Assembly (NCBI GenBank): GCA_012719355.1
Contig: JAAYAM010000018.1
Span: forward strand, 35,758 to 99,757
DNA length: 64,000 nt
Direction: 5' to 3'
DNA from: Acidobacteriota bacterium
GTDB taxonomy: Bacteria; Acidobacteriota; UBA6911
Shown: positions 6,670 through 63,557 of the stretch, one piece after another
Layout of the letters: each line of letters starts with the position of its first letter
Numbering within the stretch: the first letter of the stretch is position 1
The notes under the pieces: model-generated
Databases searched by the model: none
Seen by the model: the letters and a program-made list of their open reading frames with translations, nothing else
What the model was told of the DNA's origin: nothing
Translations under genes and position numbers: made by a program

Positions 6670-6803
6670 AAAAGTCCTGGCTTCAACGACAAACTTACCG
6701 GCCCGCACCGGCCGGAACGAGGGGGAAGCATAATCAGCGAACCGATATTTTATTACCAATAGGCTGCTGACGCAAACTCCGCGAAGTCGTCTGCACCGCA
6801 CAA

Positions 6804-11331: not shown

Positions 11332-13587
11332 ATGTACATGCAGGTGATGCCCTCGATAGGACTGTTGGCCGAGCTGCACCGTGACGCTTCCTGGAAACCG
11401 GACGCATCACGCACCCCCATCGAACATCTGGTGGAGTATCTCCTGACCGGGAGGCTTGCATCGAATGCTCCGGCAGGCATCAACGAGTTGACGGAACGTG
11501 TTCTGCAGTTTGACCCCACCGGAACCCGTGTTGTAGTTCTCGGCGGAGGGACAGGATTATCTACAATCATAGGCGGCAACTCGCAGATGCCGGAATGGCC
11601 CGAACAGCCCTTCCTCGGGCTGAAGGAGGAGTTCCCTCTTCTGGACGTCATCGTCTGCACCACCGACGATGGCGGCTCTACGGGCCGGTTCCTGAAATCT
11701 CTCCCCATGATCGGGATAGGAGATCTTAGGAAGCTCCTCATCTCATCCATCCGTTCGAATAACCTGGAAAAGAAATACGGCCTGGAGCAGGCCTCGCAAA
11801 GCGGTCTGATCCGCTTCATACACGCGCTTTTCAATTACCGCTTTCCGGGGGACCGGCAGGTCGATGCCGAACATTTGCGCGACCCGCTCCTTGTCGTCGA
11901 ACAGGAACTCAGATCCAGCTGCCCTGGGCCTCTCACAACCTCGTTGCGCCGTCTGGGAGAGTATATCTCGCCAGGAGGAGAAGGGCCTCTGATCGACCCG
12001 ACCGGGCACTCCATGGGCAACCTGCTGCTGGTTTCTGCGATTTTCATGGCGACAAAGGGAGCTTTTGGCCGGGCGCCGGCGCTTGGCGAGATTCAAAAAG
12101 GCGTCGATCACATTGCGGAACTGATAGGAACTCTCCCGGGAATCATACATGCCGCCACCGCCACCCCGGGACAGCTCAAGTTCCGATACGCCAACGGCGT
12201 GGAAGTCTATGGGCAGAGCAAGTCGGCCCAAACCGACCGAGACTCTCCGGTGGAACGCGTGGTTGCTGAGTTCGTTGATCAGCCGATAGTCGGCGACGAA
12301 ATTCTAAGCGCTATCGCTGCCGCCGACTTGATCATCTATGCGCCCGGGAGTCTGTACACCAGCATCATCCCGATACTGCAGCTGGAGCCGATCACCGATG
12401 CCATACGCGCCAACAGGGAGGCATTGAAAGTGCTCGGCGCAAATTCCTGGATGCAGAAAGGTGAAACCGATATTTCACTGAAGCACCAGGGGCGCGGCTT
12501 TCTCGTTTCCGAACTTATCGAGGCTTACGACAGGAACGTCCCTTCGGGCATAGACGGGCTCTTCGACGTGGTCCTCAGCGCCAATTTGGAGCATATCCCG
12601 GGGAATATACTGCGCAACTATGCGCTGGAAGGCAAGAGCCCGATACACCTCGACCGCCAACCGGTGGAAGAACTGGGGCTGCGTCCGGTGGAAGCAACCT
12701 TGTTTTCCTCTGAGCACTGGGAAAGGGCGCAGGTAATCCACCATGACCCTCGGCGATTTGTGCTGGCAGTTAGAACGCTGCTGTTTGCCGACAGATGCCT
12801 GAAACAACAGCAGGGGTTCGCTCTCCGGAAACTGCCTGCCCGGAAGCAGTCTGCGGCGACGCGCTTTGCCGTCGGCCACACCAAGGGGATCCTGCTCTGT
12901 GATTACCTGAAATCTGTGAAAGAGCCCCTGCAGGAAAAGGTATTCCAGCCGCCTGAGCTGAGGGATTTCCTACTCGAGGTGGCGTGGAACAATCGGGAAA
13001 TCAGACCGGCCCATCTCGAATTCTTCGAAGGAGTCGTTGTGATAGATTCCCGGTCCTGGGACCGGAACACCGAGTGGGACAACATCCTGGGCTACTATGA
13101 TCCATGCGACAGATACATCAAGCTTCATGAAGACCTTCTGTCTTCACGGTCCCGAACCTGCGAGGATCTGCTTGTCGCGCTCGGTGAGTCTCTGCTTGGA
13201 GACTACATCGCAAAGAGACGCTGGATCGAGTCTCACGGCGCGCGTACTTACGAGATTGTTCTAAGACCGCCGCAGGAACGAAACTGCTTTCTGGAAGACG
13301 CCCAGCTTCACAGCTATCTCAAGCTTGCCCGGATGACGCAGGACCAGACCGACAGCCTGACCTACAGAATCACGATAAACGATGACGAAGGATTCCTGCC
13401 GCCGGGACTGCTGTTCGGACTGCTTTACTCGTGGTATCTGACCGGAAGCGGCCTTACGATGGAATACGAGATGTCCCTCCTGCGCTGGCCGGTCAAGAGC
13501 CTCATACCGCTTCATGCCAAGGATCGGATCAGGAAAGAGAATCTGGTGACCTTTTTCCGAAGCCAGATCTTTGGACATACAGACTGA
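11332..13587 (+). CDS. YvcK/CofD-family (UPF0052, 2-phospho-L-lactate transferase-like) protein with a long C-terminal extension
   Basis: Family motifs VVVLGGGTGLSTIIGG and CTTDDGGSTGRFL are present, with LIIYAPGSLYTSIIP later. The protein is 751 aa, whereas canonical YvcK/CofD proteins are roughly 300-330 aa as I recall. Confidence 0.7.
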   Translation: MYMQVMPSIGLLAELHRDASWKPDASRTPIEHLVEYLLTGRLASNAPAGINELTERVLQFDPTGTRVVVLGGGTGLSTIIGGNSQMPEWPEQPFLGLKEEFPLLDVIVCTTDDGGSTGRFLKSLPMIGIGDLRKLLISSIRSNNLEKKYGLEQASQSGLIRFIHALFNYRFPGDRQVDAEHLRDPLLVVEQELRSSCPGPLTTSLRRLGEYISPGGEGPLIDPTGHSMGNLLLVSAIFMATKGAFGRAPALGEIQKGVDHIAELIGTLPGIIHAATATPGQLKFRYANGVEVYGQSKSAQTDRDSPVERVVAEFVDQPIVGDEILSAIAAADLIIYAPGSLYTSIIPILQLEPITDAIRANREALKVLGANSWMQKGETDISLKHQGRGFLVSELIEAYDRNVPSGIDGLFDVVLSANLEHIPGNILRNYALEGKSPIHLDRQPVEELGLRPVEATLFSSEHWERAQVIHHDPRRFVLAVRTLLFADRCLKQQQGFALRKLPARKQSAATRFAVGHTKGILLCDYLKSVKEPLQEKVFQPPELRDFLLEVAWNNREIRPAHLEFFEGVVVIDSRSWDRNTEWDNILGYYDPCDRYIKLHEDLLSSRSRTCEDLLVALGESLLGDYIAKRRWIESHGARTYEIVLRPPQERNCFLEDAQLHSYLKLARMTQDQTDSLTYRITINDDEGFLPPGLLFGLLYSWYLTGSGLTMEYEMSLLRWPVKSLIPLHAKDRIRKENLVTFFRSQIFGHTD

Positions 13588-26818: not shown

Positions 26819-29800
26819 TTATCCGTGCTTCAGAAACACGAAGGGCCGGCTATCGAGCAGGCGGTCAAGAACCGGGTGCTCATCTGTTTCAACCTGACCC
26901 AGGATCCGGGTTTGGCCGTTTTCGATAGCGGCCACCGGGACCCCATCACGATAGACAATCCGATTACCGAGAATCGCGGCTATCCGGTCGCCCGGCAGCA
27001 GGATGCCGACCAGATTGAGAGGGTCGCATGCGGAAACCCTCATGTACTCCCGCGCAGGCTCTTTGCGGCGCATTGCTCTGAGTGCGTCGACGGCTTCCGG
27101 GAGCGCAAACTGCTCGCCGTTGAGTCCGGCGATGAAGCGTCCGCCCCGAATTTCGCCTCTCGCCTCCAGGCGGCGCAGAACCCGGATCAGGTCTCTCCAG
27201 GGAGGCGCCGAAGATTCCCTTGCGAGCAATTCCCTGCAGAAAACGCCATACCGCCTCAGATACTGCAATGCCCACGACTCGGCTTTATTCTCCGGCGCGG
27301 TCCCTCCGTTCTGTAGAAGCGACCATCTTCCCTCTCGCGTACGTCTGGGTTGCCTCCTGCGACGCCTGGAATGCTCCTGTCTCTTTGTCTCGCCGGTGAC
27401 CAGTGAGCGGAGCGCGGCAAAGGAATCTGCGGTCACGAGCCCGGCGGCCACCAGCTGCCAGAGGGCTTCTTCGATCTCAGAAGGTAGATGCCGGATTCCC
27501 GCCATGATCTCCGGAAAGAAGGAGGCTCCGCGTCGCCGAAGAAAGTCAAGAACGCTTCTGGCCGGCACCGAGAGGGCGGTCTCATCGGCCGGAGTCTCGT
27601 CGAGCAGCCAGTGTATGTCGTCCCGTATTCCGAGACCGAGTGGAGCCGTCCGGGTCAACCCGGGCCTTCGTGAAGGGACTTCAGCCTGCGTGGCGCGCCG
27701 CCGCCACCTGCCCCAAACGACATCTCCGCCGAGGCAAAGGCTGTCGAGAAGCGCGGGCCGGTAATCCCTGATACGCGCCTGGAGAATTTCAGCCTCCCAG
27801 GCAGCGGCCGCAGTCTCAAATCCCTGCAGTTGGTCAATTACCTCAAGAAGGCCGAGTTCTCCCTCGAGCTGTGTCCCCGGAGCAAGGTGCTGCCAGCTGA
27901 AAAGAAACCTGAGGAAAAGCGCGGGAGCCACGGGTTCGATCTCGCGGCGAAGATGTGCGATGGTGGCTCGGTGAATCCTGGCCAGAATTCGCCTGTCACA
28001 GAACTCAGTTTCGCCTTTTTCCGAAAACGACCCCTGCAACACCAGTCCTTCCCCTTCGAGCGCAGTCAGGACGGTGAGCACATCATCTTCGTCGAACCCA
28101 AGCAGTGAGGAGACTTCCGACGGGGTGACAGGACCACTCACTTCGACCCATCCCCTGACGGCCCTGACCATGCAATCGCCATCTGAAACCTCTTTCATTT
28201 CTGATGCGGCCCAGTAGCGGCGGCCATTCTGCTCACGGACATACGCCAGTCCCTCAGAGATGAGCTGGTCCATCCATGAAGAAGCCTGTTCGGGCAGCCG
28301 TTTCGTTTCGGTCTCCGGAAGCAGGATCAATCCGAGCAATGCGTCGTGCAGTTCGTCGCCATCACGTATAACGGGCCACGTGTCCTCTGCTGCACTGCGG
28401 ATCGCATCCGGATCCAGCCTGCCCAATTCGTCCGCCCTTTCAGGAAGCGCTCTGCGCAGAACAACGGCCCGTGCCCGCCTCTCTTCAAGAGGGGCATCAT
28501 CGAGAAACGCATAAGGCATCGCATTCAGGATCTCGTGTGAAAATGCCGACGGCATGGGAGTGTCTTTGGCGGAAAACCGGATAAGGCCGCGTTCTATGCA
28601 CTGCAGCACGCGGCGCAAACCGTCAACATCCATGGCTTCGTGCAGGCAGTCCCTCAGGGTTTCAAACACCAGGGGGTGGTCGGGCACCTCGACATCGAGC
28701 GTCATCCGGTTATCCTGGCACTGCGCCTGAGCCGGAAATACCGCGGCCAGCATATCGTCCGAACGCATTCGCTGCACGGGAGCCGGAATTCGCTTCCCGC
28801 CGGAAAAGCGCAGAAGGGCGAGTGAACGGGTGAGGGTCCAACGCCATCTGGTGACGAACACCGGCGACGCCAATACCGCCTGGGTGAGGACCTCATCGAG
28901 CTTCTGCGGCCGTAGAAACAGCAGAAGGTCGTTCAGAGGAAATGAATGCTGGGGTCCAAGCGAGAGATTGATGCCGTCATCGGTGGCGGAAGCCTGCAGT
29001 TCGAAATCGAAACTGCGACAGAAACGCTTGCGCAGTGCAAGTCCCCACGCCTTATTGATTCTTGCGCCGAAAGGCGCGTGCAGTACAAGCTGCATGCCGC
29101 CTGTTTCATCGAAAAAACGCTCCGCGACAATATGGGTATCGGAGGGAACGGCCCCGAGGACGCGCTTCCCTTCCGCAACGTACTCGTATGCCTGCTCGGC
29201 TGCCGCTTGCGAGAGGCCCGGCTCCTTCATCAGCCACTGCAGGCATTCTCTTCGGTCAGCGATTCTTTCTTCGATTCCCTCCCGTACTTCCGAGACCAGC
29301 TTCGACAGTTCGGTTGTTCTGCCTGGCGCTTCACCAAGCCAGAAAGGAACATTCGGCGCCTGGCCGTGAGCATCCTCAACCCGCACCTTTCCCTTCTCGA
29401 TGCGCCGTATCCGCCACGACGAGTTGCCCAGCAGGAATACATCCCCGGCGAGACTCTCGACCGCGAAATCCTCATTCACGCTCCCGACATATGTGCCCTC
29501 CGGCTCGGCGATCACGTCGTAATCGGCATTGTCCGGAATGGCACCGCCGCTTGTTATCGCGGCAAGCCTCGCACCACGGCGGCCGCGCAGCACCTTGTGA
29601 ACCCTGTCGTGGTGCAGATATGCGGATCTTCGGCCCAGGCGTGCCGAAATCCCTTCGGAGAGCATCCGCACCACCGCATCGAACGCTTCGCGCGGGAGGT
29701 CGCGGTATGGATATGCGCCGCGGACAACCTCAAACAGCTCGTCAACACTCCACTCCTGCGCAGCGCACATGGCCACGAGCTGCTGAGAAAGGATGTCGAG

Positions 29801-31036
29801 AGGCCATGGTGGAATACTGAGCCGATCCAGTTCCCCTTTTCGAACCGCGTAAATCAGTCCTGCGCACTCGACGAGTTCGTCTCTCGTGAGAGGAAAAACG
29901 CGTCCCACGGGAAGCCCGCCCTGGCTGTGTCCCGATCTCCCGACCCGCTGCAGCAGGACGCCGATCGAACGCGGCGACCCGATCTGGCAGACAAGGTCTA
30001 CGGCCCCGATATCTATCCCCAGCTCGAGCGAAGAAGTCGCCACGCAAACCTGCACTTCGCCGTTCTTGAGCCGCTGTTCGGCTTTCAGTCTCGTCTTGCG
30101 CGAGAGGCTCCCGTGATGAGCCACGATGTTTTCCTCGCCGATCTTCTGTGACAGCAGGTGTGCCACGCGCTCGACCAGTCGACGGGTATTGACGAAGAGA
30201 ATCGTCGTCCTGTGGGCGCTTGTCAGGGCGGCAATGCGCGAAATCGTCTCATCCCAGAGCTCGTGTGTGGCAATCGGCCCCAGCTCAGCATCGGGCATCT
30301 CAATCTGAAGGTCCATCTCGCGCTGGTGCCCGATGTTGACAATCGCGCAGTCAGGATTTCCCGCGGAATCGAGTCCTCGGCTGCCGGAGAGGAACCGGGC
30401 CGCTTCTTCGACAGGACGCAATGTGGCACTCAGCCCTATCCGGGTGACCTGCTCGCCGGCCAGTGCGCACAGCCGTTGCATCGAGATGGAAAGATGGGAA
30501 CCTCGTTTGCTGCCGGCAATCGAATGTATTTCGTCCAGAATGACGGTGCGCACGCCCGCAAGACCGCGCCTGCCGCTCTCGGATGTAAGGAGAATATAGA
30601 GCGATTCCGGAGTCGTGATCCAGATATGGGGCGGCTTACGCGCAGTGGATTGACGCTCATTTGCCGGAGTATCGCCCGTACGCAACGCCACCCGGAGCGG
30701 CGTCGGCACCAGCCCCTTCGCCTTCGCCAGTTCCATGATCTCCTGGAGTGGAATCGAAAGGTTGCGGTGCACATCATTAGAGAGCGCTTTCAGCGGCGAG
30801 ACGTATACCACATGAGCCGAGTCACCCAGCGACCCGTCGATTGCGGCACGCAGCAACCTGTCTATGCACAACAGAAAGGCGGCAAGCGTTTTTCCTGATC
30901 CGGTGGGCGCGCAGATAAGGGTGCGTCGATTCCGCGCAATCGCGGGCCAGCCGAGCGCCTGCGCCTCGGTCGGCGCAGTGAACCTGCGCTCAAACCACTC
31001 TGCTACAATCGGGTGAAACAGGGATAGCGGACTCAT
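26819..31036 (-). CDS. lhr: Lhr-like large ATP-dependent DEAD/DEAH-box helicase
   Basis: The N-terminus is FHPIVAEWFERRFTAPTEAQALGWPAI. Walker A is APTGSGKT and the DEIH box is VILDEIHS, with a helicase C domain and a long Lhr-type C-terminal region. The track ORF start (31132) overlaps the divergent cobB ATG, so I prefer the ATG at 31036 (MSPLSLFHP...). Confidence 0.9.
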   Translation of the reverse strand: MSPLSLFHPIVAEWFERRFTAPTEAQALGWPAIARNRRTLICAPTGSGKTLAAFLLCIDRLLRAAIDGSLGDSAHVVYVSPLKALSNDVHRNLSIPLQEIMELAKAKGLVPTPLRVALRTGDTPANERQSTARKPPHIWITTPESLYILLTSESGRRGLAGVRTVILDEIHSIAGSKRGSHLSISMQRLCALAGEQVTRIGLSATLRPVEEAARFLSGSRGLDSAGNPDCAIVNIGHQREMDLQIEMPDAELGPIATHELWDETISRIAALTSAHRTTILFVNTRRLVERVAHLLSQKIGEENIVAHHGSLSRKTRLKAEQRLKNGEVQVCVATSSLELGIDIGAVDLVCQIGSPRSIGVLLQRVGRSGHSQGGLPVGRVFPLTRDELVECAGLIYAVRKGELDRLSIPPWPLDILSQQLVAMCAAQEWSVDELFEVVRGAYPYRDLPREAFDAVVRMLSEGISARLGRRSAYLHHDRVHKVLRGRRGARLAAITSGGAIPDNADYDVIAEPEGTYVGSVNEDFAVESLAGDVFLLGNSSWRIRRIEKGKVRVEDAHGQAPNVPFWLGEAPGRTTELSKLVSEVREGIEERIADRRECLQWLMKEPGLSQAAAEQAYEYVAEGKRVLGAVPSDTHIVAERFFDETGGMQLVLHAPFGARINKAWGLALRKRFCRSFDFELQASATDDGINLSLGPQHSFPLNDLLLFLRPQKLDEVLTQAVLASPVFVTRWRWTLTRSLALLRFSGGKRIPAPVQRMRSDDMLAAVFPAQAQCQDNRMTLDVEVPDHPLVFETLRDCLHEAMDVDGLRRVLQCIERGLIRFSAKDTPMPSAFSHEILNAMPYAFLDDAPLEERRARAVVLRRALPERADELGRLDPDAIRSAAEDTWPVIRDGDELHDALLGLILLPETETKRLPEQASSWMDQLISEGLAYVREQNGRRYWAASEMKEVSDGDCMVRAVRGWVEVSGPVTPSEVSSLLGFDEDDVLTVLTALEGEGLVLQGSFSEKGETEFCDRRILARIHRATIAHLRREIEPVAPALFLRFLFSWQHLAPGTQLEGELGLLEVIDQLQGFETAAAAWEAEILQARIRDYRPALLDSLCLGGDVVWGRWRRRATQAEVPSRRPGLTRTAPLGLGIRDDIHWLLDETPADETALSVPARSVLDFLRRRGASFFPEIMAGIRHLPSEIEEALWQLVAAGLVTADSFAALRSLVTGETKRQEHSRRRRRQPRRTREGRWSLLQNGGTAPENKAESWALQYLRRYGVFCRELLARESSAPPWRDLIRVLRRLEARGEIRGGRFIAGLNGEQFALPEAVDALRAMRRKEPAREYMRVSACDPLNLVGILLPGDRIAAILGNRIVYRDGVPVAAIENGQTRILGQVETDEHPVLDRLLDSRPFVFLKHG

Positions 31037-31130
31037 CGATCGAAATATAGACCATGAGACGGGCAAAGACAAAAAGCCGAAGCCAAAAGCCGGGCCCCCG
31101 ACGACGGAAAGTTCATGATATAACTCTGTC

Positions 31131-31895
31131 ATGAGCGATCATGGCAACATCAGCAGAGTTGCACAACTCATCGAAGAATCATCGAATACCATCGCTTTTA
31201 CCGGCGCCGGAATCAGCACCGAAAGCGGCATTGCGGATTTTCGCAGCCCGGGAGGCGTCTGGACCAGGTACCGGCCCGTGCTTTATCCTGATTTCCTGGC
31301 GAACGAAGATGCGCGCCGCCGCTACTGGCAGATGAAGAAGGAAGGCTATTACGAACTGAAACGGGCCGAACCCAACGCAGGTCACCAGGCTCTCGCCCGG
31401 CTCGAAAAGGCCGGAAAACTCCTGGCGGTCATCACACAGAATATCGACGGATTGCATCAGGATGCCGGAAGCCGGAAAGTCCTTGAACTGCACGGCACAA
31501 GCCGCTTCTGCATCTGTCTTGACTGCGATGCCCGATTCTCCTCCGACGAAATCCAGCAACGGCTGGAATCAGGAACGGAAATACCGCTGTGCGAGCATTG
31601 CGGCGGACTGGTAAAGTCTGCGACGGTTTCTTTCGGCCAGGCCCTGCCGGTGGACGTTCTGACTGAAGCGGTCAATCTCTCGTTGGCCGCCGAACTGTTC
31701 CTTGCCATCGGGTCCTCGCTGGTCGTCGAACCTGCCGCGTCGTTGCCATTGCACGCGAAGAACAACGGTGCACGGCTCGTAATAATCAACCGCACCCAGA
31801 CCCCGCTGGATCATCTCGCGGATATCGTGATCCGCGACCCGATCGGCGCAACACTGTCCCAGGCTATCGGGATGTTTGAAGCCGGTACCTCATGA
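31131..31895 (+). CDS. cobB: NAD-dependent protein deacylase, SIR2 family
   Basis: FTGAGISTESGIADFRSPGGVW, QNIDGLH and the Zn-ribbon cysteines CLDC...CEHCGG are present. Confidence 0.9.
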   Translation: MSDHGNISRVAQLIEESSNTIAFTGAGISTESGIADFRSPGGVWTRYRPVLYPDFLANEDARRRYWQMKKEGYYELKRAEPNAGHQALARLEKAGKLLAVITQNIDGLHQDAGSRKVLELHGTSRFCICLDCDARFSSDEIQQRLESGTEIPLCEHCGGLVKSATVSFGQALPVDVLTEAVNLSLAAELFLAIGSSLVVEPAASLPLHAKNNGARLVIINRTQTPLDHLADIVIRDPIGATLSQAIGMFEAGTS

Positions 31896-44068: not shown

Positions 44069-44385
44069 GTGAGCTTCTAGCTCGTTTCGTACTTCTCCTC
44101 TTCTTGCAGTCACTTTCCCATCAAAAGAAAATTTGATCTGTACTCAGTCTCGTCTCTGCCGTACTATCAGACGAACGATATTCGAAATATGTTATTTTCA
44201 TCACAATCCTGCCGATACGTACTATTACGGACCACCGGTTGGCTAATGACGCCTACCTTGGATTGAGTAGTTTGGCTGATTGATTCACAAGCATGATGAA
44301 GGTTCAATAGGAGCATCCAAGCGCAATTGTGCATGGACCGGAAGACCGGCTGTTCCTGACTCGGAATATACTTGTGGGGGTTGTT

Positions 44386-44577
44386 ATGAACGTATGCAGC
44401 TTCAAGAAATTGGTCAAATTGCTTGACCGGCAACTGAATCTGGACGAGAAACTCGAGGTCCTCGATCATCTGGAATCGTGCCCGATCTGCAGGGACGCGG
44501 TTTACCAGATCTCCCGTGATCGGGATGAGGCGCTTTTCGTCCGGCGGCCTTTCAACGTTGAAAAGAACGTAGCGTAG
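44386..44577 (+). CDS. Small zf-HC2 (anti-sigma-factor-type zinc finger) protein
   Basis: 63-aa protein MNVCSFKKL... carrying the HLESCPIC (H-x3-C-x2-C) ZAS motif. It has no TM or output domain. Confidence 0.5.
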   Translation: MNVCSFKKLVKLLDRQLNLDEKLEVLDHLESCPICRDAVYQISRDRDEALFVRRPFNVEKNVA

Positions 44578-45028: not shown

Positions 45029-48000
45029 ATGACGTATCAAGGACGTATGAAGAAGCGCTGGATCAGATTTGCCCTCTTACTGCCCGCATCACTTGTCGCC
45101 ATCCTGGTGGCATTTCTGCTATTTGTCCAGACTCCGTTCGCGGGACGGCTGATCGCCCGTCAGGTCCGCAGCTATCTGATCGAAAAGTACGGTGCCGATC
45201 TGCGGTGCACGGGACTCAGACTGAACCTCCTGAACACTTCCGTCGAGATCGACGATGTTGCAGTTCATTCCACTTCTACGCCGGGACTGCCGCCTGTTTT
45301 TCAGGCCGACACGGTTCGGGTGAAAGTCGGACTGGGCGGCATCCTGCGTGGAGTGACCGATCTCGAGCGGATTGAAATTGGGAGACCGCAGGTCAGCTAC
45401 GTTATCGGGAAAGACGGCCGAAGCAACATCCCTGAAATTCCTCCCTCTTCGGGCGAAAAGACTTCGCGGTTCCTCATCTCCCAGGCGATCGCCGAGAACG
45501 GATCGTTCCGGTATGAAGATGCCCGTGACGCCACTACCGTGATCTTTCCTTACTGGCAACTGTCGATCGCCGGAAATCGCGAGACGTTCGATCATGAAAT
45601 CAGCCTCACGGCGGGCCCTGTGGAGAAATTCCAGATTCAGGGACGTGTGATCCCGCTCGAAAGCTTAACGTTTTCGGGGCTCCTGCAGCCGGATGATCTC
45701 AGGATCAGGCTCGCCGAATTCCGTTTTCCCGGATCGATTGTAGCTGTATCCGGATCCATCACCGACTTGGATGCCCCCGGACTGGAACTGCAAATCAGCC
45801 CGGATCTTGATCTCGGCAGAATTATCAGCAGCGCGGGACTAAACTGGCCCGTTAAGGGGCGTGTTGCCGGCACCATCTCGGTTGTCGGCGCTTCCACCGC
45901 TCCTTCCATCAATGGACGACTGACGGGACGCAATATCGACGCCGGCCGCTACCGCAAAACCCGGTTCGATCTCCGGACCTCGGCAGAGATCACTTCAGAA
46001 GAGATTCTCCTCCGCGATGTCCGCCTTGTATCTCCGGAGGGCTCTCTGAACGCCAGCGGACGATTGTCCCTGTCACCTGAAGGTTCCAGTACCCTCGATG
46101 TCGGGATCAGGGACTTCAACCTGTACGGACTCGGGAAACAGCTCGATGCGCCGTTTGATATCGCAAGCCTTGTGACGGGAAGGGTCGCGCTGCGCTGGAA
46201 GGGGGCTTTCGCTCTTTCCCGAATCCGCGCAAATGCCAACCTCGACATGAGGACCTCGACAGACGTGCATGCTCCTGATCTTCTGCCGCTTTCCGGGACG
46301 CTGCATGCCAGGATGCAGTCAGACCGCATCGACGGTGAACTCCGGGACTTTTCGGTGATGGGGAGCCGTATCGCCGGCAGCTTTTCGCTCGATTCGCTGG
46401 AAACGCTGCAGGCTAATCTTGAAGGAACGATACCGGAAATTGATTCGACTGCGGCCCGCCTTGCGAAATTCCTCGGCGACTCGGGCGACGATCTCGCCGG
46501 ACTGGAACTCGGCGGAGCCGCCCATTTTCAAGTCCAGGCCGCAGGGCAGCTGCAAAACCCTGCCCTCACGGTCTCACTCGAAGCTTCTGAGCTGCGGGCA
46601 AGCGAATTCAAACACCTCAAGGCGCAGGTTAACGCCGCCATCGAAGGCCCTCACATTGAACTCGATACTGCGGTGACGTTTCCCCAGGAATCCACTCTGA
46701 ACGCACATGCGACTTTGGACACGCAGGGGGAGAAGACCCTGCTGGACTTGAACGCCTCCATCCGGGCAATGCCTGTCTTGTCGTTGCTGGCATCTCTGGA
46801 AAAAGACATCGAAGGATCCGGGACTTTCACCTCGGAATTGCACGTCAGCGGACCGATGGATGCCCCCGAGGCAAGCCTTGAGGTCACGAGCGATCCTATC
46901 TGGATAGAAGAGCAGCCTGTCGGGCAACTTGATCTTGCGTTGCACCTCTCCGAGGGCCGGCTCCGGTCCGAGCGGTTCCGAATCGTGAGAGACCGGACGG
47001 ATCCTGACCAGGACTATCTCGACGCGCGCATCACGTACGTTCCGAAATCGAGAGAATTCAGTTTCCAGGCAAACGGCAAGGCGCTCGACATGGGTCGGCA
47101 TACCTTCGGAGGGACAAAGGTAGAGGGCAGGATCAACCTCACGGCGTCTGGAAAAGGAACGATCGATAACCCGTCCATCGCAGCGGTGATCGAATCAGAC
47201 GACATCCGGGTACAGCAGAGATCGCTCGGGCCTGTGACCGTCACGGCTGACTTGTTGAACCAGGATCTGTCCGTCAAAACGACGGCGCCGCGCCTGAACC
47301 TTGCGTCGAACGTCCATATGGAGAACCGATCACCTTTCCCGTTCCAGGGTTCGGTGGAAGCCCGGAACCTTCAATTGGCGCTCTTCGAAATCGGGCTCGC
47401 GAAAGATGAATTGCTGGCCGGAGCCATCTCCGCCCTGGTCAAGGGTTCGGGAAACCTGGAGGATCTGTCCAAATCACGAGTTACGGCGCACATCGAGAAT
47501 GTGCATCTGGAAAGCGGCGCACTCAAGATAAACAGCCAGGGCCCGATAGATGCCGAATACCGGGACAACACGATCGAATTGAAGCGGCCGGCGATCATAG
47601 CAAGCGGAGATTCACGACTCGAATTGGCCGGCAGAGTGCCGCTTGAGAAGTCGAGTTCAGAGGGAACCCTGACCATCAGGGGAGAGATCGATCTTGAGCA
47701 GGCTGCCGGCTTTCTGCCTCCCCAACGGCAACTCGCTGCAGCGGGAAAGATGTATCTCAATGTGGCACTCTCGGGTGCCATGGATTTTCTGGCCGCTGCA
47801 GGAGTAATCACGGTACAGAACGGGCGTCTGCAGCATGCCGGTCTGCCGGTACCGCTGACGGGGATTGAAATCAGGAGTGCCATCGAGGGCGGTGCCCTGA
47901 CGCTGCAGAGAGCCGAGGCGAGTTTTGGAGAGGCGGCGATCAGCGCTAGAGGAGAGTTGCCGTTCGGTTTGCTGCCAGGGAATCTGCCGGTGCAGTTCTA

Positions 48001-51000
48001 CCGCAAGCAGGGTCCTGCGCAGCTTGTGCTCGACGTTGACAACCTCAGGCCCGAAGCTACGGAAATGCTTCCGGAAGGAATCAGCGGCCTTCTCTCGCTG
48101 CACGCAGAAGGAGAAGCGAAAAGTTTTGACCTGGAGGGAATCAGGGCAACTGCGGCCTTCCAGGACCTGCGCTTCAAAGCCAATCAGATCGAGATAGCAC
48201 AGCAGGGGGCATCCACGATCGTGCTGCAAGACGGAGTCGCCTCCGTCGCCCGATTCACGCTGACGGGGACAGGAACGAATATTGACATCACCGGTTCATT
48301 CGGACTCCTTCCCGGAAGCCCTGTGGATCTCAGGCTTGCGGGCGACTTCAATGCCGGATTGCTCACATTCGTCGACCAGAATCTCAAGGCCGCCGGAAGA
48401 ACGGACGTCAGGGTGGTGGTCGGTGGAACCCGGGAGGATCTGAAATTTGCGGGGATCGCGGAGATGAACGGAGGCCGGGTCACGCTTGTGAGTCCGCGGC
48501 TTGTCGCCGACAGCCTGACCGTAAGGTTGAGCCTTACTCCGGAACAGCTGACTCTCCAGGAGTTGAAGGGAACGCTCAACGGCGGTTCCGTTACGGCCGA
48601 AGGCACGGTCGCATCAAAGCGAAGCACCTTTGATGACTTCGACCTCAAAATGCGTGTTCAGGATGTTTTCTTCGACTATCCGCAAGGGCTGAAATCATCC
48701 TCGAGCGGCGATCTCACATTTACCTCACAGGATGACTTCCTTGTTGTAGGCGGGACTGTCCGGATACAGGAGAGTTCGTACCGGGAAGACTTCACAGTCA
48801 CCGGACAGCTGATGAATTTTCTCAAGTCACAGGGTTTCGAAGAAGAAGTGGAACCAAACCCGTTTCTGGACCGCATCCGTTTCAACGTTGCGGTCAGGAC
48901 CGTCACGCCGCTCCAGGTGCAGAACAATGTGGCGAGCATAGAAGCCACGGCAAATCTGAGGCTTGTCGGAACCGTTAACGACCCGTCGGTCACCGGCAGG
49001 ATAACCCTGAACGAAGGGGGCGAGATAATATTGAACAATCGGTCGTACTTTCTCGACCGCGGCAGCATAACCCTGACCGATCAAACACGGATAAGGCCGG
49101 AACTGGACCTGCAGGCCCAAACCAAGGCCCACGATTATCAGATAATTCTTGAACTGACAGGCACGCCGGACAAACTCACGACAACGTTGCGGGACGAATC
49201 GCAGGTACTGACGGAGCGACAGATCATCTCGCTCCTCCTTACCGGCAAGACCGACACCGACACCCAGGACACGGGAGCGAACGGAACCTCCACCGCCGGA
49301 AGCACGATGAAGACTCAGGCGCTTTCGCTTTTGGCCGGACAGGCGGGAGAACAGCTCACCCGTGAAGCACGGCAGGCGCTACGCCTCAGCACGTTCAGAA
49401 TAGACCCGGGAATGATCCAGTCCGAATCCGAGACAGCCGGACCCAGACTTACGCTCGGGGATGACATAACCAGCAAGCTCGGCATCCTTTACTCCATGAG
49501 CCTGGAAGGCGGCGGCAAAGAGATTGTCAGCGCCCGCTACGATATCGCACGCAGGCTTAGTGTGCAGACTACGAAACAGGAAGACAACATCTTCAGGTTC
49601 CAGATGCTTCACGATCTGCGCTTCGGTGGTGCCACAAGGCAAAGATCGGGCGGCCAGAGACGGGAGAGATTCGAGATCGGGTCAATAGAGTTCAAAAGCC
49701 CCACCCCCTCGGAAACGCTGCTGGGCAAGTTCAAGGCAAAGCCCGGAGACAAGTATGATTTTCCGAAGATCCAGAAGGGACTGGATAATCTGCAGGAGTA
49801 CTACAGAGCCGAGAAGCGGCTCGAAGCAGACATCCGGCTTGAAAGAGAGACCAGCCGGAACAAGGTCAATCTGGATATCTCGGCTGTCCCCGGGCCGGTC
49901 GTGTCGTTCGTTTTCGAAGGCGTGCCCCTGCCGCAGCGTCTGAAAAAGGAGGTCGAGGAAGCCTGGACAAGCGGCGTGTTCGATGTCGAACGACTTGACG
50001 ATGCGGTCAGCGCAATACGCTTCTATCTGCTCAGCGAGGGTTACCTGCAGGCGGCAATCTCTCACAGGATCGAAACCGACACCGACAGCAAGACCGTTTA
50101 TTTCAACGTCGAGCCCGGAGTGCGCTATGCCGGAGTCTCCAGGATTTTCCCCGGAGCTTCGCGCATCAAGGACTGGGTTTTGAACGAAGCTATCGACCGG
50201 GCCGGTCTTGGAATGGACGTTTACACGAATCCACGTAAGGTCTCCGATTTTCTCAAACGATACTATCAGCAGCGTGGCTATCTTCAGACAAAGGTGAGCC
50301 TTCCCCTGCCCGAACTCGACCCGGAAACCGGAACCGGTAAGGTCGTCATAACGATCGACGAAGGGCCCCAGTTTCTGGTTGGCGAACTGGAGTTCACCGG
50401 AAACGCCTCTTTCGAGTATGACGAACTCTGGAGCATCATTCCCACGTCGATCGGGAGCATCTTTAATACCGGCAGCATGCAGGATGCAGTGAAGGCGCTG
50501 GAGGATTTTTACCGTGCACGGGGCTACAATGAAGTCACCGTAACATACCGCGTTTCGCATGATCCTGCGAAGGCACTTGCTAATGTCCTCTTCCAGATCA
50601 CCGAGCGCAGGAAGTCCGTCATCCGCGAAATCGTGGTGGAGGGAAATCAGAGAACGAGCCAGAGCTTTGTCCTTAGCCAGCTGGACTTCCAGGTCGGAGA
50701 CGTGCTCGATGTCGCAAAAATCAACGAGAGCAGGAGGCGTTTCTACGCCACGCGAGTATACAGCTCGGTCGATTTTATAACAGAGGAGACACCGGGCGCC
50801 CAGAATCCACAGGTGAAGAACGTCCGCATCCGCGTAAGACTCCGGGAAGTCCAGCCCTACCGGTTCCAGTACGGCTTCCTCGTTGATACCGAGGGAAAGC
50901 GGGGGGGCTTGGTGGAGCTTCAGAATCTCAACTTACTGGGGAGAGCCTCGGCTCTCGGAATGAGGTTGCGGATTGATTCCGAGTTCAAGGAAGGCCGGCT

Positions 51001-51925
51001 CTACTTCAGCCAGCCGTTTGTGACAAAAATCCATCTCAAAATGGACGCTACGGCGTTTTACCAGGAAGAGAGCCGTGACAGCTTCTGGGCAAGAAGGATA
51101 GGCTTTTCCATATTCAGGGAAAAAGAGCTTCCCGGGAACATGGTTCTCAACTACGGATACCGCTACGACAATGTCAAATGGAGTGACGACTTCTCGCCGG
51201 ATCCTACCATCTTCCATGCGGATGTTCCGGTAGCACGCCTGATTACTTCGATAACGCGCGATACGCGCGACAGCGCTCTGGACGCCACCCGCGGAGACTT
51301 CACATCCCATAGTATGGAGTTCGGACCGAAGTGGCTGGGATCTGACATCGGATTCGCCCGCTACTACGGTCAGTTCCTCAAGTATGTGCCGCTCGAGAAG
51401 TACTTCGGGATGCGCACGGAAGATGAAGAGGGGAAGCCTGTGCCGAGCTCTTTCGTTTTTGCCAGTGCGCTGCGGCTGGGACTTACGTCCGCCTTCGGCT
51501 CCCCACCCCCGGACGATCCGTCACCTATCATTTCGCCCGAACGCTTCTTTGCCGGCGGCGGGACCACAATGCGTGGCTTCCCGCAGGATCTTCTGGGCCC
51601 CACCGAAATCGTGCCCGTCAAGAAGGAGGATGGAACAATCAAACCCGTGGAAAAGCCGAAAGGAGGGGAGGGGCTCTTCCTGTTCAACAACGAATTACGT
51701 TTTCCGCTCTTCAGCATCTTCCAGGGAGTGGTCTTCCTTGACGTCGGCAATGTCTACCCACGGCTCGCCGATTTCGACTTCACGCTGCGGAAGACGGCAG
51801 GAGCAGGGCTCCGGGCCAAGATCAAGTTCATTCCCCTTCGCTTCGATTATGGCTGGAAACTCGATCGCCTCAGGCCGGGCGAGAGCGCGGGCGAGTTCTT
51901 CTTCAGTATCGGGCAGGCTTTCTAG
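45029..51925 (+). CDS. Giant fusion protein: TamB/AsmA-like translocation-and-assembly module protein fused to a 5-POTRA Omp85/BamA-type outer-membrane beta-barrel
   Basis: The N-terminal anchor is WIRFALLLPASLVAILVAFLLF. About 1500 aa of repetitive beta-rich sequence end in a DUF490/TamB-type block (NDPSVTGRITLNEGGEIILNNRSYFLDRGSITL...ILELTGTPDKLTTTLRDESQVLTERQIISLLLTGKT). After a Gly/Arg linker (about 49630-49665) come five POTRA-like repeats (about 49670-50850). An Omp85 barrel follows (about 50850-51925), ending ...FFFSIGQAF*. Confidence 0.85.
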   Translation: MTYQGRMKKRWIRFALLLPASLVAILVAFLLFVQTPFAGRLIARQVRSYLIEKYGADLRCTGLRLNLLNTSVEIDDVAVHSTSTPGLPPVFQADTVRVKVGLGGILRGVTDLERIEIGRPQVSYVIGKDGRSNIPEIPPSSGEKTSRFLISQAIAENGSFRYEDARDATTVIFPYWQLSIAGNRETFDHEISLTAGPVEKFQIQGRVIPLESLTFSGLLQPDDLRIRLAEFRFPGSIVAVSGSITDLDAPGLELQISPDLDLGRIISSAGLNWPVKGRVAGTISVVGASTAPSINGRLTGRNIDAGRYRKTRFDLRTSAEITSEEILLRDVRLVSPEGSLNASGRLSLSPEGSSTLDVGIRDFNLYGLGKQLDAPFDIASLVTGRVALRWKGAFALSRIRANANLDMRTSTDVHAPDLLPLSGTLHARMQSDRIDGELRDFSVMGSRIAGSFSLDSLETLQANLEGTIPEIDSTAARLAKFLGDSGDDLAGLELGGAAHFQVQAAGQLQNPALTVSLEASELRASEFKHLKAQVNAAIEGPHIELDTAVTFPQESTLNAHATLDTQGEKTLLDLNASIRAMPVLSLLASLEKDIEGSGTFTSELHVSGPMDAPEASLEVTSDPIWIEEQPVGQLDLALHLSEGRLRSERFRIVRDRTDPDQDYLDARITYVPKSREFSFQANGKALDMGRHTFGGTKVEGRINLTASGKGTIDNPSIAAVIESDDIRVQQRSLGPVTVTADLLNQDLSVKTTAPRLNLASNVHMENRSPFPFQGSVEARNLQLALFEIGLAKDELLAGAISALVKGSGNLEDLSKSRVTAHIENVHLESGALKINSQGPIDAEYRDNTIELKRPAIIASGDSRLELAGRVPLEKSSSEGTLTIRGEIDLEQAAGFLPPQRQLAAAGKMYLNVALSGAMDFLAAAGVITVQNGRLQHAGLPVPLTGIEIRSAIEGGALTLQRAEASFGEAAISARGELPFGLLPGNLPVQFYRKQGPAQLVLDVDNLRPEATEMLPEGISGLLSLHAEGEAKSFDLEGIRATAAFQDLRFKANQIEIAQQGASTIVLQDGVASVARFTLTGTGTNIDITGSFGLLPGSPVDLRLAGDFNAGLLTFVDQNLKAAGRTDVRVVVGGTREDLKFAGIAEMNGGRVTLVSPRLVADSLTVRLSLTPEQLTLQELKGTLNGGSVTAEGTVASKRSTFDDFDLKMRVQDVFFDYPQGLKSSSSGDLTFTSQDDFLVVGGTVRIQESSYREDFTVTGQLMNFLKSQGFEEEVEPNPFLDRIRFNVAVRTVTPLQVQNNVASIEATANLRLVGTVNDPSVTGRITLNEGGEIILNNRSYFLDRGSITLTDQTRIRPELDLQAQTKAHDYQIILELTGTPDKLTTTLRDESQVLTERQIISLLLTGKTDTDTQDTGANGTSTAGSTMKTQALSLLAGQAGEQLTREARQALRLSTFRIDPGMIQSESETAGPRLTLGDDITSKLGILYSMSLEGGGKEIVSARYDIARRLSVQTTKQEDNIFRFQMLHDLRFGGATRQRSGGQRRERFEIGSIEFKSPTPSETLLGKFKAKPGDKYDFPKIQKGLDNLQEYYRAEKRLEADIRLERETSRNKVNLDISAVPGPVVSFVFEGVPLPQRLKKEVEEAWTSGVFDVERLDDAVSAIRFYLLSEGYLQAAISHRIETDTDSKTVYFNVEPGVRYAGVSRIFPGASRIKDWVLNEAIDRAGLGMDVYTNPRKVSDFLKRYYQQRGYLQTKVSLPLPELDPETGTGKVVITIDEGPQFLVGELEFTGNASFEYDELWSIIPTSIGSIFNTGSMQDAVKALEDFYRARGYNEVTVTYRVSHDPAKALANVLFQITERRKSVIREIVVEGNQRTSQSFVLSQLDFQVGDVLDVAKINESRRRFYATRVYSSVDFITEETPGAQNPQVKNVRIRVRLREVQPYRFQYGFLVDTEGKRGGLVELQNLNLLGRASALGMRLRIDSEFKEGRLYFSQPFVTKIHLKMDATAFYQEESRDSFWARRIGFSIFREKELPGNMVLNYGYRYDNVKWSDDFSPDPTIFHADVPVARLITSITRDTRDSALDATRGDFTSHSMEFGPKWLGSDIGFARYYGQFLKYVPLEKYFGMRTEDEEGKPVPSSFVFASALRLGLTSAFGSPPPDDPSPIISPERFFAGGGTTMRGFPQDLLGPTEIVPVKKEDGTIKPVEKPKGGEGLFLFNNELRFPLFSIFQGVVFLDVGNVYPRLADFDFTLRKTAGAGLRAKIKFIPLRFDYGWKLDRLRPGESAGEFFFSIGQAF

Positions 51926-61818: not shown

Positions 61819-62009
61819 GATCTTCAGAATACCGCACTTTTCAATCAGGATCGCGGCAGATTGCGTCTTTTGCTGAGTCGCAGCTATGCAATTTGTTGAA
61901 TTGGCTTTTGGTATTCTCTATTATTCCAGATTTCAGCTCATGGGTGAACGTGTCTGCAGAAGCAACCAAAACTGTAACTCCACCAAAGTCCAGGGCGACC
62001 GCCGAAAGC

Positions 62010-63557
62010 ATGGCGACCCGCCAGCGTGAAATTTCCATCTCTGAATTCTTCAGCAAGAATCGTCATCTCTTAGGATTCGATAACCCTCAGAAGGCGCTCC
62101 TGACGGCCGTGAAAGAAGCCGTCGACAACTCTCTGGACGCCTGTGAGGATGCCGGGATCCTGCCCACGCTTAAGATCGAAATCCGTCAGCTGGAGGACGA
62201 CCGCTTCCGCATCGCGGTCGAAGACAACGGCCCCGGCATCGTGAAATCCCAGATACCGAAAATCTTCGGCAAGCTTTTATATGGGTCGAAGTTTCACACT
62301 CTTAAACAGGCGCGCGGCCAGCAGGGCATCGGGATTTCGGCCGCCGGCATGTACGGGCTGCTCACGACGGGCAAGTCCATTGCTGTCACATCCCGCACAG
62401 GAGCAGGGAAACCGGCGCATTACTACGAGATCCAGATCGACACCCGGAAGAATGCGCCGCAGATCATTACGGACAAGGTCGTAGATTGGGAGGCGGAACA
62501 TGGAACGCGGGTCGAGATCGAGCTGATCGGGACCTACAAGAAAGGACGCCACTCGGTCGATGACTATGTGCGCCAGACAGCGATAGCCAATCCGCATTGC
62601 GAGATTTTCTACACCCCGCCGGATGCTGCTGAACCATTTCATCTGCAGCGGGGATCCGAAATGCTCCCTGCGGAACCGAAAGAGATCAAGCCGCATCCTT
62701 ACGGCGTCGAGCTCGGCGTTCTTATCAGGATGATGAAGGAGAGTTCTTCGCGTCAGCTCAGCGCCGCACTTCAAAAGGACTTCTCGAGGGTGAGCAGTCG
62801 CGTGGCCGCCGAGATCTGCCATGCCGCCGGGCTCAGGCCAAGCGCCAATCCGCACACTATCGTAGTGCATGAGGCTGAACAGCTGTTCAAGGCAATCAAC
62901 AGTGTCAAAATCATGAGCCCGACGACCAACTGTCTTTCTCCGATCGGAGAAGAACAGATTCTGTCGGGACTGAAAAAAGAAATCGATGCTTCTTTCTACA
63001 CCGCCATAACGCGTGCGCCTGCCGTCTACCGGGGGAATCCTTTCCAGGTGGAAGTCGGTCTCGCGTACGGCGGCAGCCTCAAGAGCGAAGAGCTCATCGA
63101 TCTGTTGCGTTTTGCCAACCGCGTGCCGCTGCAGTATCAGCAGTCCGGTTGCGCCATGACCAAAGCCGTTCTGGGAATTGACTGGCGCAATTACGGACTG
63201 TCTCAATCCAAAGGAGCACTCCCGACAGGTCCCGTGGTCCTTTTCGTCCATATCGCGTCGGTCTGGGTGCCCTTCACTTCGGAAAGCAAGGAAGCGGTAG
63301 CCGCCTATCCGGATATCATGCGTGAACTGAGGCTGGCATTGCAGGAATGCGGCCGCAAACTCTCGATGCACGTCCGGGCGCACAGAAGAGCGGTCGACGA
63401 GCAGAAGAAGCGGTCTTACATAGAGAAATACATACCGCACATCGGCATCGCGCTTCGAGAGATTCTCGGATTGAGCGACCAAGCCGAGAAGGATCTCGTG
63501 GTGACGCTCAAGGACGTACTCGAGCGTAGCCGCTCACGCGAACAGTTCACGGACTGA
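62010..63557 (+). CDS. top6B: DNA topoisomerase VI subunit B
   Basis: QREISISEFFSKNRHLLGFDNPQKALLTAVKEAVDNSLDA is the Bergerat-fold N box and VEDNGPGIV is the G1 box. A transducer domain follows. The start could instead be an upstream GTG within the track ORF (61893). Confidence 0.9.
   Translation: MATRQREISISEFFSKNRHLLGFDNPQKALLTAVKEAVDNSLDACEDAGILPTLKIEIRQLEDDRFRIAVEDNGPGIVKSQIPKIFGKLLYGSKFHTLKQARGQQGIGISAAGMYGLLTTGKSIAVTSRTGAGKPAHYYEIQIDTRKNAPQIITDKVVDWEAEHGTRVEIELIGTYKKGRHSVDDYVRQTAIANPHCEIFYTPPDAAEPFHLQRGSEMLPAEPKEIKPHPYGVELGVLIRMMKESSSRQLSAALQKDFSRVSSRVAAEICHAAGLRPSANPHTIVVHEAEQLFKAINSVKIMSPTTNCLSPIGEEQILSGLKKEIDASFYTAITRAPAVYRGNPFQVEVGLAYGGSLKSEELIDLLRFANRVPLQYQQSGCAMTKAVLGIDWRNYGLSQSKGALPTGPVVLFVHIASVWVPFTSESKEAVAAYPDIMRELRLALQECGRKLSMHVRAHRRAVDEQKKRSYIEKYIPHIGIALREILGLSDQAEKDLVVTLKDVLERSRSREQFTD

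Follow-up and report, generated by a model that had tools for sequence, protein, structure and literature searches.

Can a TamB protein and the Omp85 protein that serves as its partner be carried by one polypeptide, and how would such a chain work between the two membranes? This question is raised by a stretch of 64,000 nucleotides (nt) from an Acidobacteriota bacterium (contig JAAYAM010000018.1, positions 35,758 to 99,757 of the forward strand; hereafter the window), in which a single gene appears to encode both. [quoted passage not shown] A first reading based only on the letters of the window (hereafter the sequence-only reading) had described the gene as one uninterrupted TamB-Omp85 polypeptide. 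We find that this architecture is indeed present, that it is conserved, and that the two parts are joined at a constant position. By analogy with known systems, we consider it rather probable that the product acts as a single-chain, TAM-like bridge between inner and outer membrane, with a hybrid barrel formed within one chain and a covalently closed ring of POTRA domains.

According to the open reading frame (ORF) listing and its translation, positions 45029..51925 of the forward strand form a single unbroken ORF of 2298 codons plus the stop. The peptides quoted in the sequence-only reading are all found in it and in the same order (...RLSVQTTKQEDNIFRFQMLHDLRF, GGATRQRSGGQRRE, ...FFFSIGQAF and the stop), the guanine-plus-cytosine content is even along the gene (0.54-0.59), and the junction at nt 49625-49669 contains neither a stop nor a change of frame. 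The start codon is ambiguous, either the ATG at 45029 (Met1) or the in-frame ATG at 45047 (Met7); a JGI gene call belonging to the same 90% cluster is 2292 amino acids (aa) long, matching the Met7 start, while the Shine-Dalgarno spacing is not convincing for either candidate. A trivial explanation of such an ORF would be that two adjacent genes were merged by an assembly or sequencing error through the loss of a stop codon or a frameshift, and the existence of a split relative with only TAG-ATG between the genes (see below) lends this idea some substance. However, gene calls on 13 contigs, which come from at least six independent ENA/JGI/Logan samples, give the identical 2298-aa product, with the same neighbours. 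Moreover, dozens of uninterrupted orthologues exist down to ~21% identity, one of them in the finished genome of a cultured strain, and in the fused proteins a linker takes the place of the signal peptide of the split form. We regard an artefact as so improbable that it can practically be set aside. The stop codon or frameshift between the DUF490 block and the first POTRA domain, which the sequence-only reading had named as the sign of two genes, is absent from this ORF as well as from its fused orthologues.

The relatives were surveyed for fused and split forms, as had been proposed in the sequence-only reading, and the fused form proved widespread in Acidobacteriota; two kinds of split loci, represented by L035 and L034, are described below. 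A word-indexed search returned about 50 clusters (90% identity) with the full architecture, 1965-2437 aa long and down to ~21% identity. When the 1148-aa part spanning the junction was used as query against representatives of 50%-identity clusters, at least 150 matches covered the junction in one stretch, and in 146 family proteins it is spanned by a single BLAST alignment; the number of such clusters with a spanned junction is put at no fewer than about 140. Among GTDB species representatives, a first scan yielded about 24 fused ORFs without interruption, 2058-2360 aa long, and a second scan more than 544 related stretches, the best 80 loci of which were examined: 65 of the 74 informative ones are uninterrupted across the whole match and the remaining nine are interrupted, at varied positions. 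A genome scan with single-protein patterns found no relative, whereas the narrower alignments A3 and A8 did. Since the record titles span Terriglobus, Bryobacterales, Solibacter, Vicinamibacterales, Aminicenantes, Acidiferrales and Polarisedimenticolia, the fusion is widespread across several classes of the phylum. The nearest GTDB relatives of the lineage of the window are uncultured Acidobacteriota (44-48% identity). The cultured type strain Terriglobus roseus DSM 18391 has a 2086-aa version, recorded as "outer membrane protein/protective antigen OMA87" (GenBank AFL89875.1 / UniProt I3ZKV7) and, in RefSeq, as [quoted passage not shown] (WP_169315317.1). Public databases have contained fused proteins since 2012, listed under generic names.

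A few loci of this survey deserve a separate comment. Fused genes of acidobacterial type were found on contigs JAIEMQ010000031.1 (L022/L156), CAZDLW010000008.1 (L147) and CAYOSH010000017.1 (L169), whose metagenome-assembled genomes (MAGs) are titled Cyanobacteriota, Bifidobacteriaceae and Eubacteriales. With 40% identity, a gene of Solibacter type is nearest to that of L022, and errors of binning or labelling probably explain these cases better than spread between phyla. The Bryobacteraceae MAG SBS.BIN.82 carries one fused gene on each of contigs 97 and 126 (L129 and L133), which could be two paralogous copies or reflect strain heterogeneity. Finally, P0121 (1265 aa) and P0122 (876 aa), which lie on one 9.1-Mb contig and belong to the 90% cluster of P0021, were considered as a split version and rejected: the frameshift that separates them is inside the TamB body, near residue 985, their junction is still fused, and the frameshift reflects either a pseudogene or a sequencing error.

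The assignment of the first ~1500 residues to TamB, which the sequence-only reading had made from their repetitive beta structure and a DUF490 block, holds over the whole length. In a hhalign comparison between a profile of 45 fused proteins and a profile of stand-alone TamBs including that of E. coli, the two match with a probability of 100% (E 5e-126) over 1267 aligned columns. Because positions 18-1515 of the fused profile are aligned with 14-1325 of the 1326 positions of TamB, the N-terminal ~1500 aa are, as judged from this profile alignment, a complete TamB and more than a DUF490 block. The DUF490 domain itself (PF04357) scores 128.4 bits against a gathering cut-off of 22.4 (E 5.5e-37), and Pfam also reports DUF748 at residues 6-214 plus a weak AsmA N-terminal match. 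Among PDB sequences, the family profile retrieves the E. coli TamB chain 9xdc_B at residues 846-1246 (E 9.6e-42), while a single-sequence phmmer search with residues 1151-1545 gave no match.

The structure was also predicted with AlphaFold2 (AF2), and the TamB body is almost entirely beta in the models. That of residues 1-1150 (predicted local distance difference test score, pLDDT, of 86.7) begins with two helices, the first at residues 7-33, which are followed by about 80 beta-strands; in the model of residues 1151-2298 (pLDDT 78.6) the strands continue up to a helical segment of low confidence, which corresponds in position to the TamB C-terminal helices of the E. coli structures (PMC12800296, PMC13119328). 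Six strands complete the TamB part, the last three with pLDDT values of about 77-85, moderate to good. The first helix aligns with the TamB N-terminus and agrees with the signal-anchor noticed in the sequence-only reading, being the single strongly hydrophobic segment of the protein. Such a segment, N-terminal in every case, occurs exactly once in 41 of 45 family members. When PDB was searched by Foldseek with the model of residues 1-1150, TamB fragments were matched no better than weakly (E 0.15-0.23), so that the homology of the TamB body rests on the hhalign comparison. In PDB the body was best matched, though with a low TM-score (E 1e-8), by the beta-belt of human apolipoprotein B100, a very long lipid-binding amphipathic beta-sheet; the similarity is probably in kind only.

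The C-terminal part combines POTRA domains, a PF01103 barrel, a loop-6 motif of the (V/I)RG(F/Y) kind and a C-terminal aromatic residue, as expected of the Omp85 superfamily. Pfam recognizes POTRA in five stretches (137.9 bits, E 1.9e-40), the AF2 model contains five beta-alpha-alpha-beta-beta units in the same region, and PF01103 matches residues 1968-2298 with 120.3 bits (E 1.6e-34). Pfam, AF2 and Foldseek therefore all agree with the five POTRA domains and the barrel ending in FFFSIGQAF of the sequence-only reading, which also rightly saw in the number of POTRA domains a resemblance to BamA rather than TamA. E. coli TamA has three, and the barrel sequence of the fusion is closer to that of BamA. 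Foldseek matches residues 1151-2298 best with BamA chains of full length in PDB (~830 aligned columns, E ~1e-43), the family profile scores ~300 bits with BamA and 158-177 bits with TamA in PDB, and the best NCBIfam family is BamA TIGR03303 (249.1 bits). On the other hand, TamA NF047950 gives 48.6 bits against a cut-off of 625, and the TamL equivalog score is also far under its cut-off. What precedes the first POTRA domain is not a cleavable signal peptide of the BamA type, but TamB and a non-hydrophobic linker. The Omp85 part of the window is removed to about the same degree from deltaproteobacterial BamA as from the Omp85s of L034 and L035 (23-27% identity, ~150 bits), and is nearer to the fused form of T. 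roseus (30% identity, 307 bits); its barrel represents a divergent, paralogue-like lineage.

Given that BamA is the best-scoring named family in all three comparisons, that five is the POTRA number of BamA, and that no second Omp85 or TamB gene lies within the 64-kb window, the fused Omp85 might be thought to be the only, essential BamA of the organism, with outer membrane protein assembly hard-wired to an inner-membrane-anchored TamB. We find this very unlikely: the score stays under 297, the cut-off of the BamA equivalog; a second copy next to a canonical BamA has been reported in Acidobacteria (Heinz et al., 2015; PMC4494059); the phylum has stand-alone Omp85 genes in abundance; and 64 kb say little about a whole genome.

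We then asked where the two parts meet. Phe1532 aligns with the last residue of stand-alone TamBs, E. coli TamB included: the latter ends in ...LDLLYQFEF-COOH, those of L034 and L035 in ...KFKKRFK and ...FRVRHAF, and in the fused proteins the corresponding residues are followed directly by the linker (...FQMLHDLRF then GGATRQ... in the window; ...EIRQKFRF then GGGP... in T. roseus). Because stand-alone TamBs end at the residue aligned with Phe1532, the sequence alignment places the join at the natural C-terminus of TamB. This terminal position is Phe in 122 of 147 family members and Leu, Trp or Ile in 24 more. The beta-signal-like terminal strand is consequently kept, although it has become internal, the linker and Omp85 coming after it. 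As for the linker, the short Gly/Arg segment of the sequence-only reading turns out to be 15 residues long. Up to the first POTRA strand its length has a median of 15 aa and lies between 13 and 18 aa in 143 of 147 members, whereas its sequence is not conserved, being rich in Gly, Arg, Pro and Ala and not hydrophobic. None of 45 fused members has a hydrophobic segment at the junction and most lack any second such segment, so no internal signal peptide survives in the fusions. Two distant members, P0044 and P0046 (2405 and 2437 aa), are outside the 13-18-aa rule; they carry, between the end of TamB and the first POTRA domain, an insertion of ~170 residues that resembles an extra POTRA domain.

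These features of the linker bear on whether the chain stays in one piece. An Arg- and Gly-rich segment for which the model predicts disorder (pLDDT < 50) could be the site at which a polyprotein, exported as one chain, is cut to yield an ordinary complex of TamB and Omp85. The fusion would then serve only co-export and a 1:1 stoichiometry and stand in for the lost signal peptide of Omp85, which, having none of its own, must be exported within the fusion. However, no cleavage motif is conserved, only the composition and length of the linker; a mere cleavage spacer would not need to be held at 13-18 aa; and a free TamB C-terminus is not obviously required if the last strand exits to the periplasm. 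For these reasons, processing at the linker appears quite unlikely to us.

The split relatives suggest how the fusion may have arisen. In a marine Acidobacteria MAG of Vicinamibacterales type (L035; PAWT01000012.1, 5382-12470), tamB encodes 1371 aa and ends with ...RHAF-TAG, and the ATG of omp85 (990 aa) is the codon right after this TAG, in the same frame. Several X residues, due to ambiguous bases, are present in the translation of the 3′ part of this tamB. The gene order is that of the fusion and tamB ends exactly where the TamB part of the fusion ends; the differences are the stop codon, a longer Omp85 and the retention of a hydrophobic signal peptide (MNPLNHSSCAEGRKLWFAVRHLASLVLAGWVTCVSLGA) at its start. 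Since 66 sequences of ~990 aa, this Omp85 among them, form one cluster, the split state is real. The pair is likely the pre-fusion state, a secondary split being the alternative. Most likely, the fusion would have originated from such an abutting tamB-omp85 pair by loss of the stop codon and replacement of the Omp85 signal peptide by the linker.

The second split type has the opposite order. In L034, omp85 (976 aa, at least six POTRA matches) is followed by a 259-aa ORF and then by tamB (1327 aa). This is an example of the "BamA-TamB" operon of Acidobacteria (Heinz et al., 2015; PMC4494059), and operons of this type occur in at least 495 GTDB species. Like the fusion, they are found in this phylum and encode both protein families together; unlike it, they start with omp85 and specify separate proteins, each with its own export signal, with more POTRA domains and only ~23% identity to the fused parts. 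The best 80 genomes for each type, out of about 500 or more species in either case, have no genome in common: Acidiferrales and other Terriglobia predominate for the operon, and Bryobacterales, Solibacter and Vicinamibacterales for the fusion. This may indicate a complementary distribution or result from sampling. In lineages with the fusion, the fused gene may replace the separate omp85-tamB operon.

How could such a chain work? In the cryo-electron microscopy structures of E. coli TamAB, the C-terminal strands of TamB occupy the opened TamA barrel, and the last one (residues 1251-1259), which carries a beta-signal-like motif, pairs with the first barrel strand, beta1, of TamA (PMC12800296, PMC13119328). 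In these two studies, both of 2026, the resulting hybrid barrel has been described as a stable, permanent functional state (PMC13119328) or as one of two interchanging states (PMC12800296). Modelling of Borrelia TamB with a five-POTRA BamA likewise has TamB strands completing the barrel, with the POTRA domains in a closed ring and POTRA1 near POTRA5 (PMC13382580). The sequence-only reading had TamB dock through the POTRA domains and the DUF490 C-terminus; in the light of these structures the C-terminal part of this statement holds, as docking occurs mainly by strands entering the opened barrel, whereas POTRA contacts are not the sole route (PMC12800296, PMC13119328). For a fusion, strand insertion raises a geometric question that was absent from the sequence-only reading, namely how the chain passes from an inserted strand to POTRA1.

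The resemblance to E. coli TAM (9xdc/9xdd; nanodisc structures of PMC13119328) comprises the homology of TamB from end to end, with its DUF490, the six strands that conclude it and the aromatic residue of the last one, as well as an Omp85 partner having POTRA domains and a barrel in which loop 6 carries the RGF motif. By analogy, the expected role would also be shared, that is, to anchor a lipid-conducting bridge to the outer membrane and/or to assemble outer membrane proteins. The gene nevertheless falls outside the TAM complex as defined by Selkrig et al. (2012), as it is a single ORF conserved as such, and both halves score far under the NCBI TamA and TamB equivalog cut-offs. The Borrelia burgdorferi pair BB0794-BB0795 has TamB directly upstream of a five-POTRA Omp85 of BamA type, as in the fusion (PMC13382580, PMC4494059); there, however, the two are separate proteins and BamA is the only, housekeeping copy, whereas here a covalent linker of ~15 aa connects them.

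From the models of Borrelia TamB-BamA and from the homology to TamAB of E. coli we infer the membrane topology, the intactness in vivo, the one-chain hybrid barrel and the cargo. The N-terminal helix would stay in the inner membrane and the ~1500-residue beta-groove would span the periplasm. The six C-terminal TamB strands would insert at the lateral gate of the barrel of their own chain, the last one pairing with beta1 of that barrel; by analogy with BAM substrates, its orientation relative to beta1 would be antiparallel and its end would lie at the periplasmic rim. As six is an even number, both ends of the TamB insert would lie in the periplasm. The chain would thus exit the last TamB strand on the periplasmic side, and because it does so, the 15-residue linker would close the five POTRA domains into a covalent ring beneath the barrel. 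The predicted product is a permanent 1:1 bridge which, as TAM, may deliver phospholipids to the outer membrane and/or take part in outer membrane protein assembly. Retention of the docking strand and its terminal aromatic residue, together with a linker whose length is held in nearly all members while its sequence varies, supports this reading. To the complete picture, i.e., an intact chain with its inner membrane helix, a periplasmic lipid groove, six TamB strands in its own barrel (~22 strands in all) and a covalent POTRA ring, we would tentatively give not quite an even chance.

Several observations weigh against a single-chain bridge. The scores of the two halves with their named families are low, with 56.3 bits for the TamB equivalog NF047952 (far under its cut-off of 825) and 249.1 bits for TIGR03303, below 297.15. 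The N-terminal helix is a putative uncleaved anchor by homology with TamB alone. A stand-alone BamA, which would be needed to insert the barrel, was not found within the 64-kb window. Finally, a 15-aa linker reaches ~50 Å at most, and to attain POTRA1 it requires a POTRA arm that is curled back on itself, like that of the Borrelia model. If the five-POTRA arm were instead extended, the linker might not reach from the gate of its own barrel to POTRA1, and the TamB strands could enter another Omp85 barrel, either that of the cell's canonical BamA or that of another molecule of the fusion. The barrel of the same chain would then be a tethered insertase or anchor, and dimers or chains would result; in Borrelia, the partner of TamB is indeed the housekeeping five-POTRA BamA (PMC13382580). 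However, docking between chains meets the same linker constraint, as POTRA1 must still be near the engaged barrel, and fusions of interacting partners usually keep the interaction within the chain. Furthermore, the Borrelia modelling, by setting POTRA1 near POTRA5, makes closure within one chain feasible. Inter-chain docking is for us an unlikely arrangement, and we retain the single-chain bridge as the preferred one.

A natural TamB-Omp85 fusion is not described in the full-text literature that we searched, a search that does not extend to subscription-only papers. The architecture is absent from Heinz and Lithgow (2014), from Heinz et al. (2015; PMC4494059), from the 2024 TAM review, from the structural papers of 2026 and from the length classes of bacterial DUF490 proteins, given as 1250-1300, 1450-1500 and 1650-1700 aa only (PMC13119328). 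The fusion adds to the Omp85 and AsmA-like families an architecture missing from these surveys. With its join at the end of the beta1-pairing strand and its linker of fixed length, an ancient natural fusion bears on the disagreement between a permanent (PMC13119328) and an interchanging (PMC12800296) hybrid barrel. Evolution has tolerated, and perhaps favoured, a permanent 1:1 tether of the TamB C-terminus to its Omp85 partner; if the single-chain bridge is correct, this would be natural evidence that a stable, not transient, hybrid barrel is the working state of TAM-type machines. For any structural model, the linker provides a distance restraint of about 50 Å or less between the strand end and POTRA1, and a single-gene construct with fixed 1:1 stoichiometry may suit structural work. 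Whether one chain resides in both membranes is testable in the cultured host T. roseus DSM 18391. Should this be so, it would be, to our knowledge, the first described polypeptide with an inner membrane helix anchor and an outer membrane beta-barrel anchor. VirB10 of type IV secretion systems, the textbook example, is also a single polypeptide that sits in the inner membrane and reaches through the outer one, but it is unrelated to the fusion in sequence and fold and crosses the outer membrane by alpha-helices in a 14-mer, not as a monomeric beta-barrel.

Table 1. Features of the fused gene in the window (residues are counted from Met1).
Feature	Residues	Nucleotides	Strand	Evidence and remarks
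Whole fused gene	2298 aa + stop	45029..51925	+	alternative start ATG 45047
N-terminal signal-anchor FALLLPASLVAILVAFLLFV	~13-34	45065..45130	+	putative; preceded by basic KKRWIR; sole segment with KD19 >= 1.6
TamB/AsmA-like beta-rich body	~35-1395	45131..49213	+	hhalign, AF2, Pfam DUF748, NCBIfam TamB partial matches
TamB/DUF490 (PF04357)	1179-1516	48563..49576	+	Pfam; profile positions 3-365 of 381
Helical segment of DUF490	~1396-1451	49214..49381	+	AF2 helices, part with pLDDT < 50; low confidence
Six C-terminal TamB beta-strands	~1455-1532	49391..49624	+	AF2; last strand RFQMLHDLRF ends at Phe1532
Linker GGATRQRSGGQRRER	1533-1547 (15 aa)	49625..49669	+	AF2 pLDDT < 50
Five POTRA domains	~1548-1621, 1624-1695, 1704-1773, 1783-1858, 1862-1940	49670..50848	+	Pfam, AF2, Foldseek
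Omp85 beta-barrel	~1944-2298	50858..51922	+	Pfam PF01103, Foldseek vs BamA
Loop-6 RGF motif	2182-2184 (MRGF 2181-2184)	51572-51580	+	nearly invariant in family
Barrel C-terminal FFFSIGQAF		51896-51922	+	terminal F2298 nearly invariant in family

The surroundings of the gene were also inspected. No conserved envelope-related neighbour or operon partner was found, the flanks encoding oligopeptidase F, an AIM24-family protein and GcvP. In the window, the neighbours of the gene are divergent and convergent. Promoter and terminator scans remained at chance level, and tRNA and Rfam scans of the window gave zero matches. About 450 nt upstream of the fusion gene, an 82-aa ORF (44329-44577, +) matches zf-HC2, a putative anti-sigma factor zinc-finger (Pfam E 1e-5); it is called as a gene in other assemblies too, and no ECF sigma factor gene was seen adjoining it. 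Elsewhere in the window, a 554-aa ORF (61893-63557, +) with topoisomerase VI B transducer and GHKL ATPase domains (Pfam E 4e-60) is an archaeal-type Topo VI subunit B within a bacterial window. Three further products are an ADP-forming acyl-CoA synthetase fused to a GNAT domain (959 aa; 3922-6801, -), an Lhr-type helicase of 1437 aa (26819-31132, -) and a CofD-family protein (11332-13587, +) that is unusually long at 751 aa.

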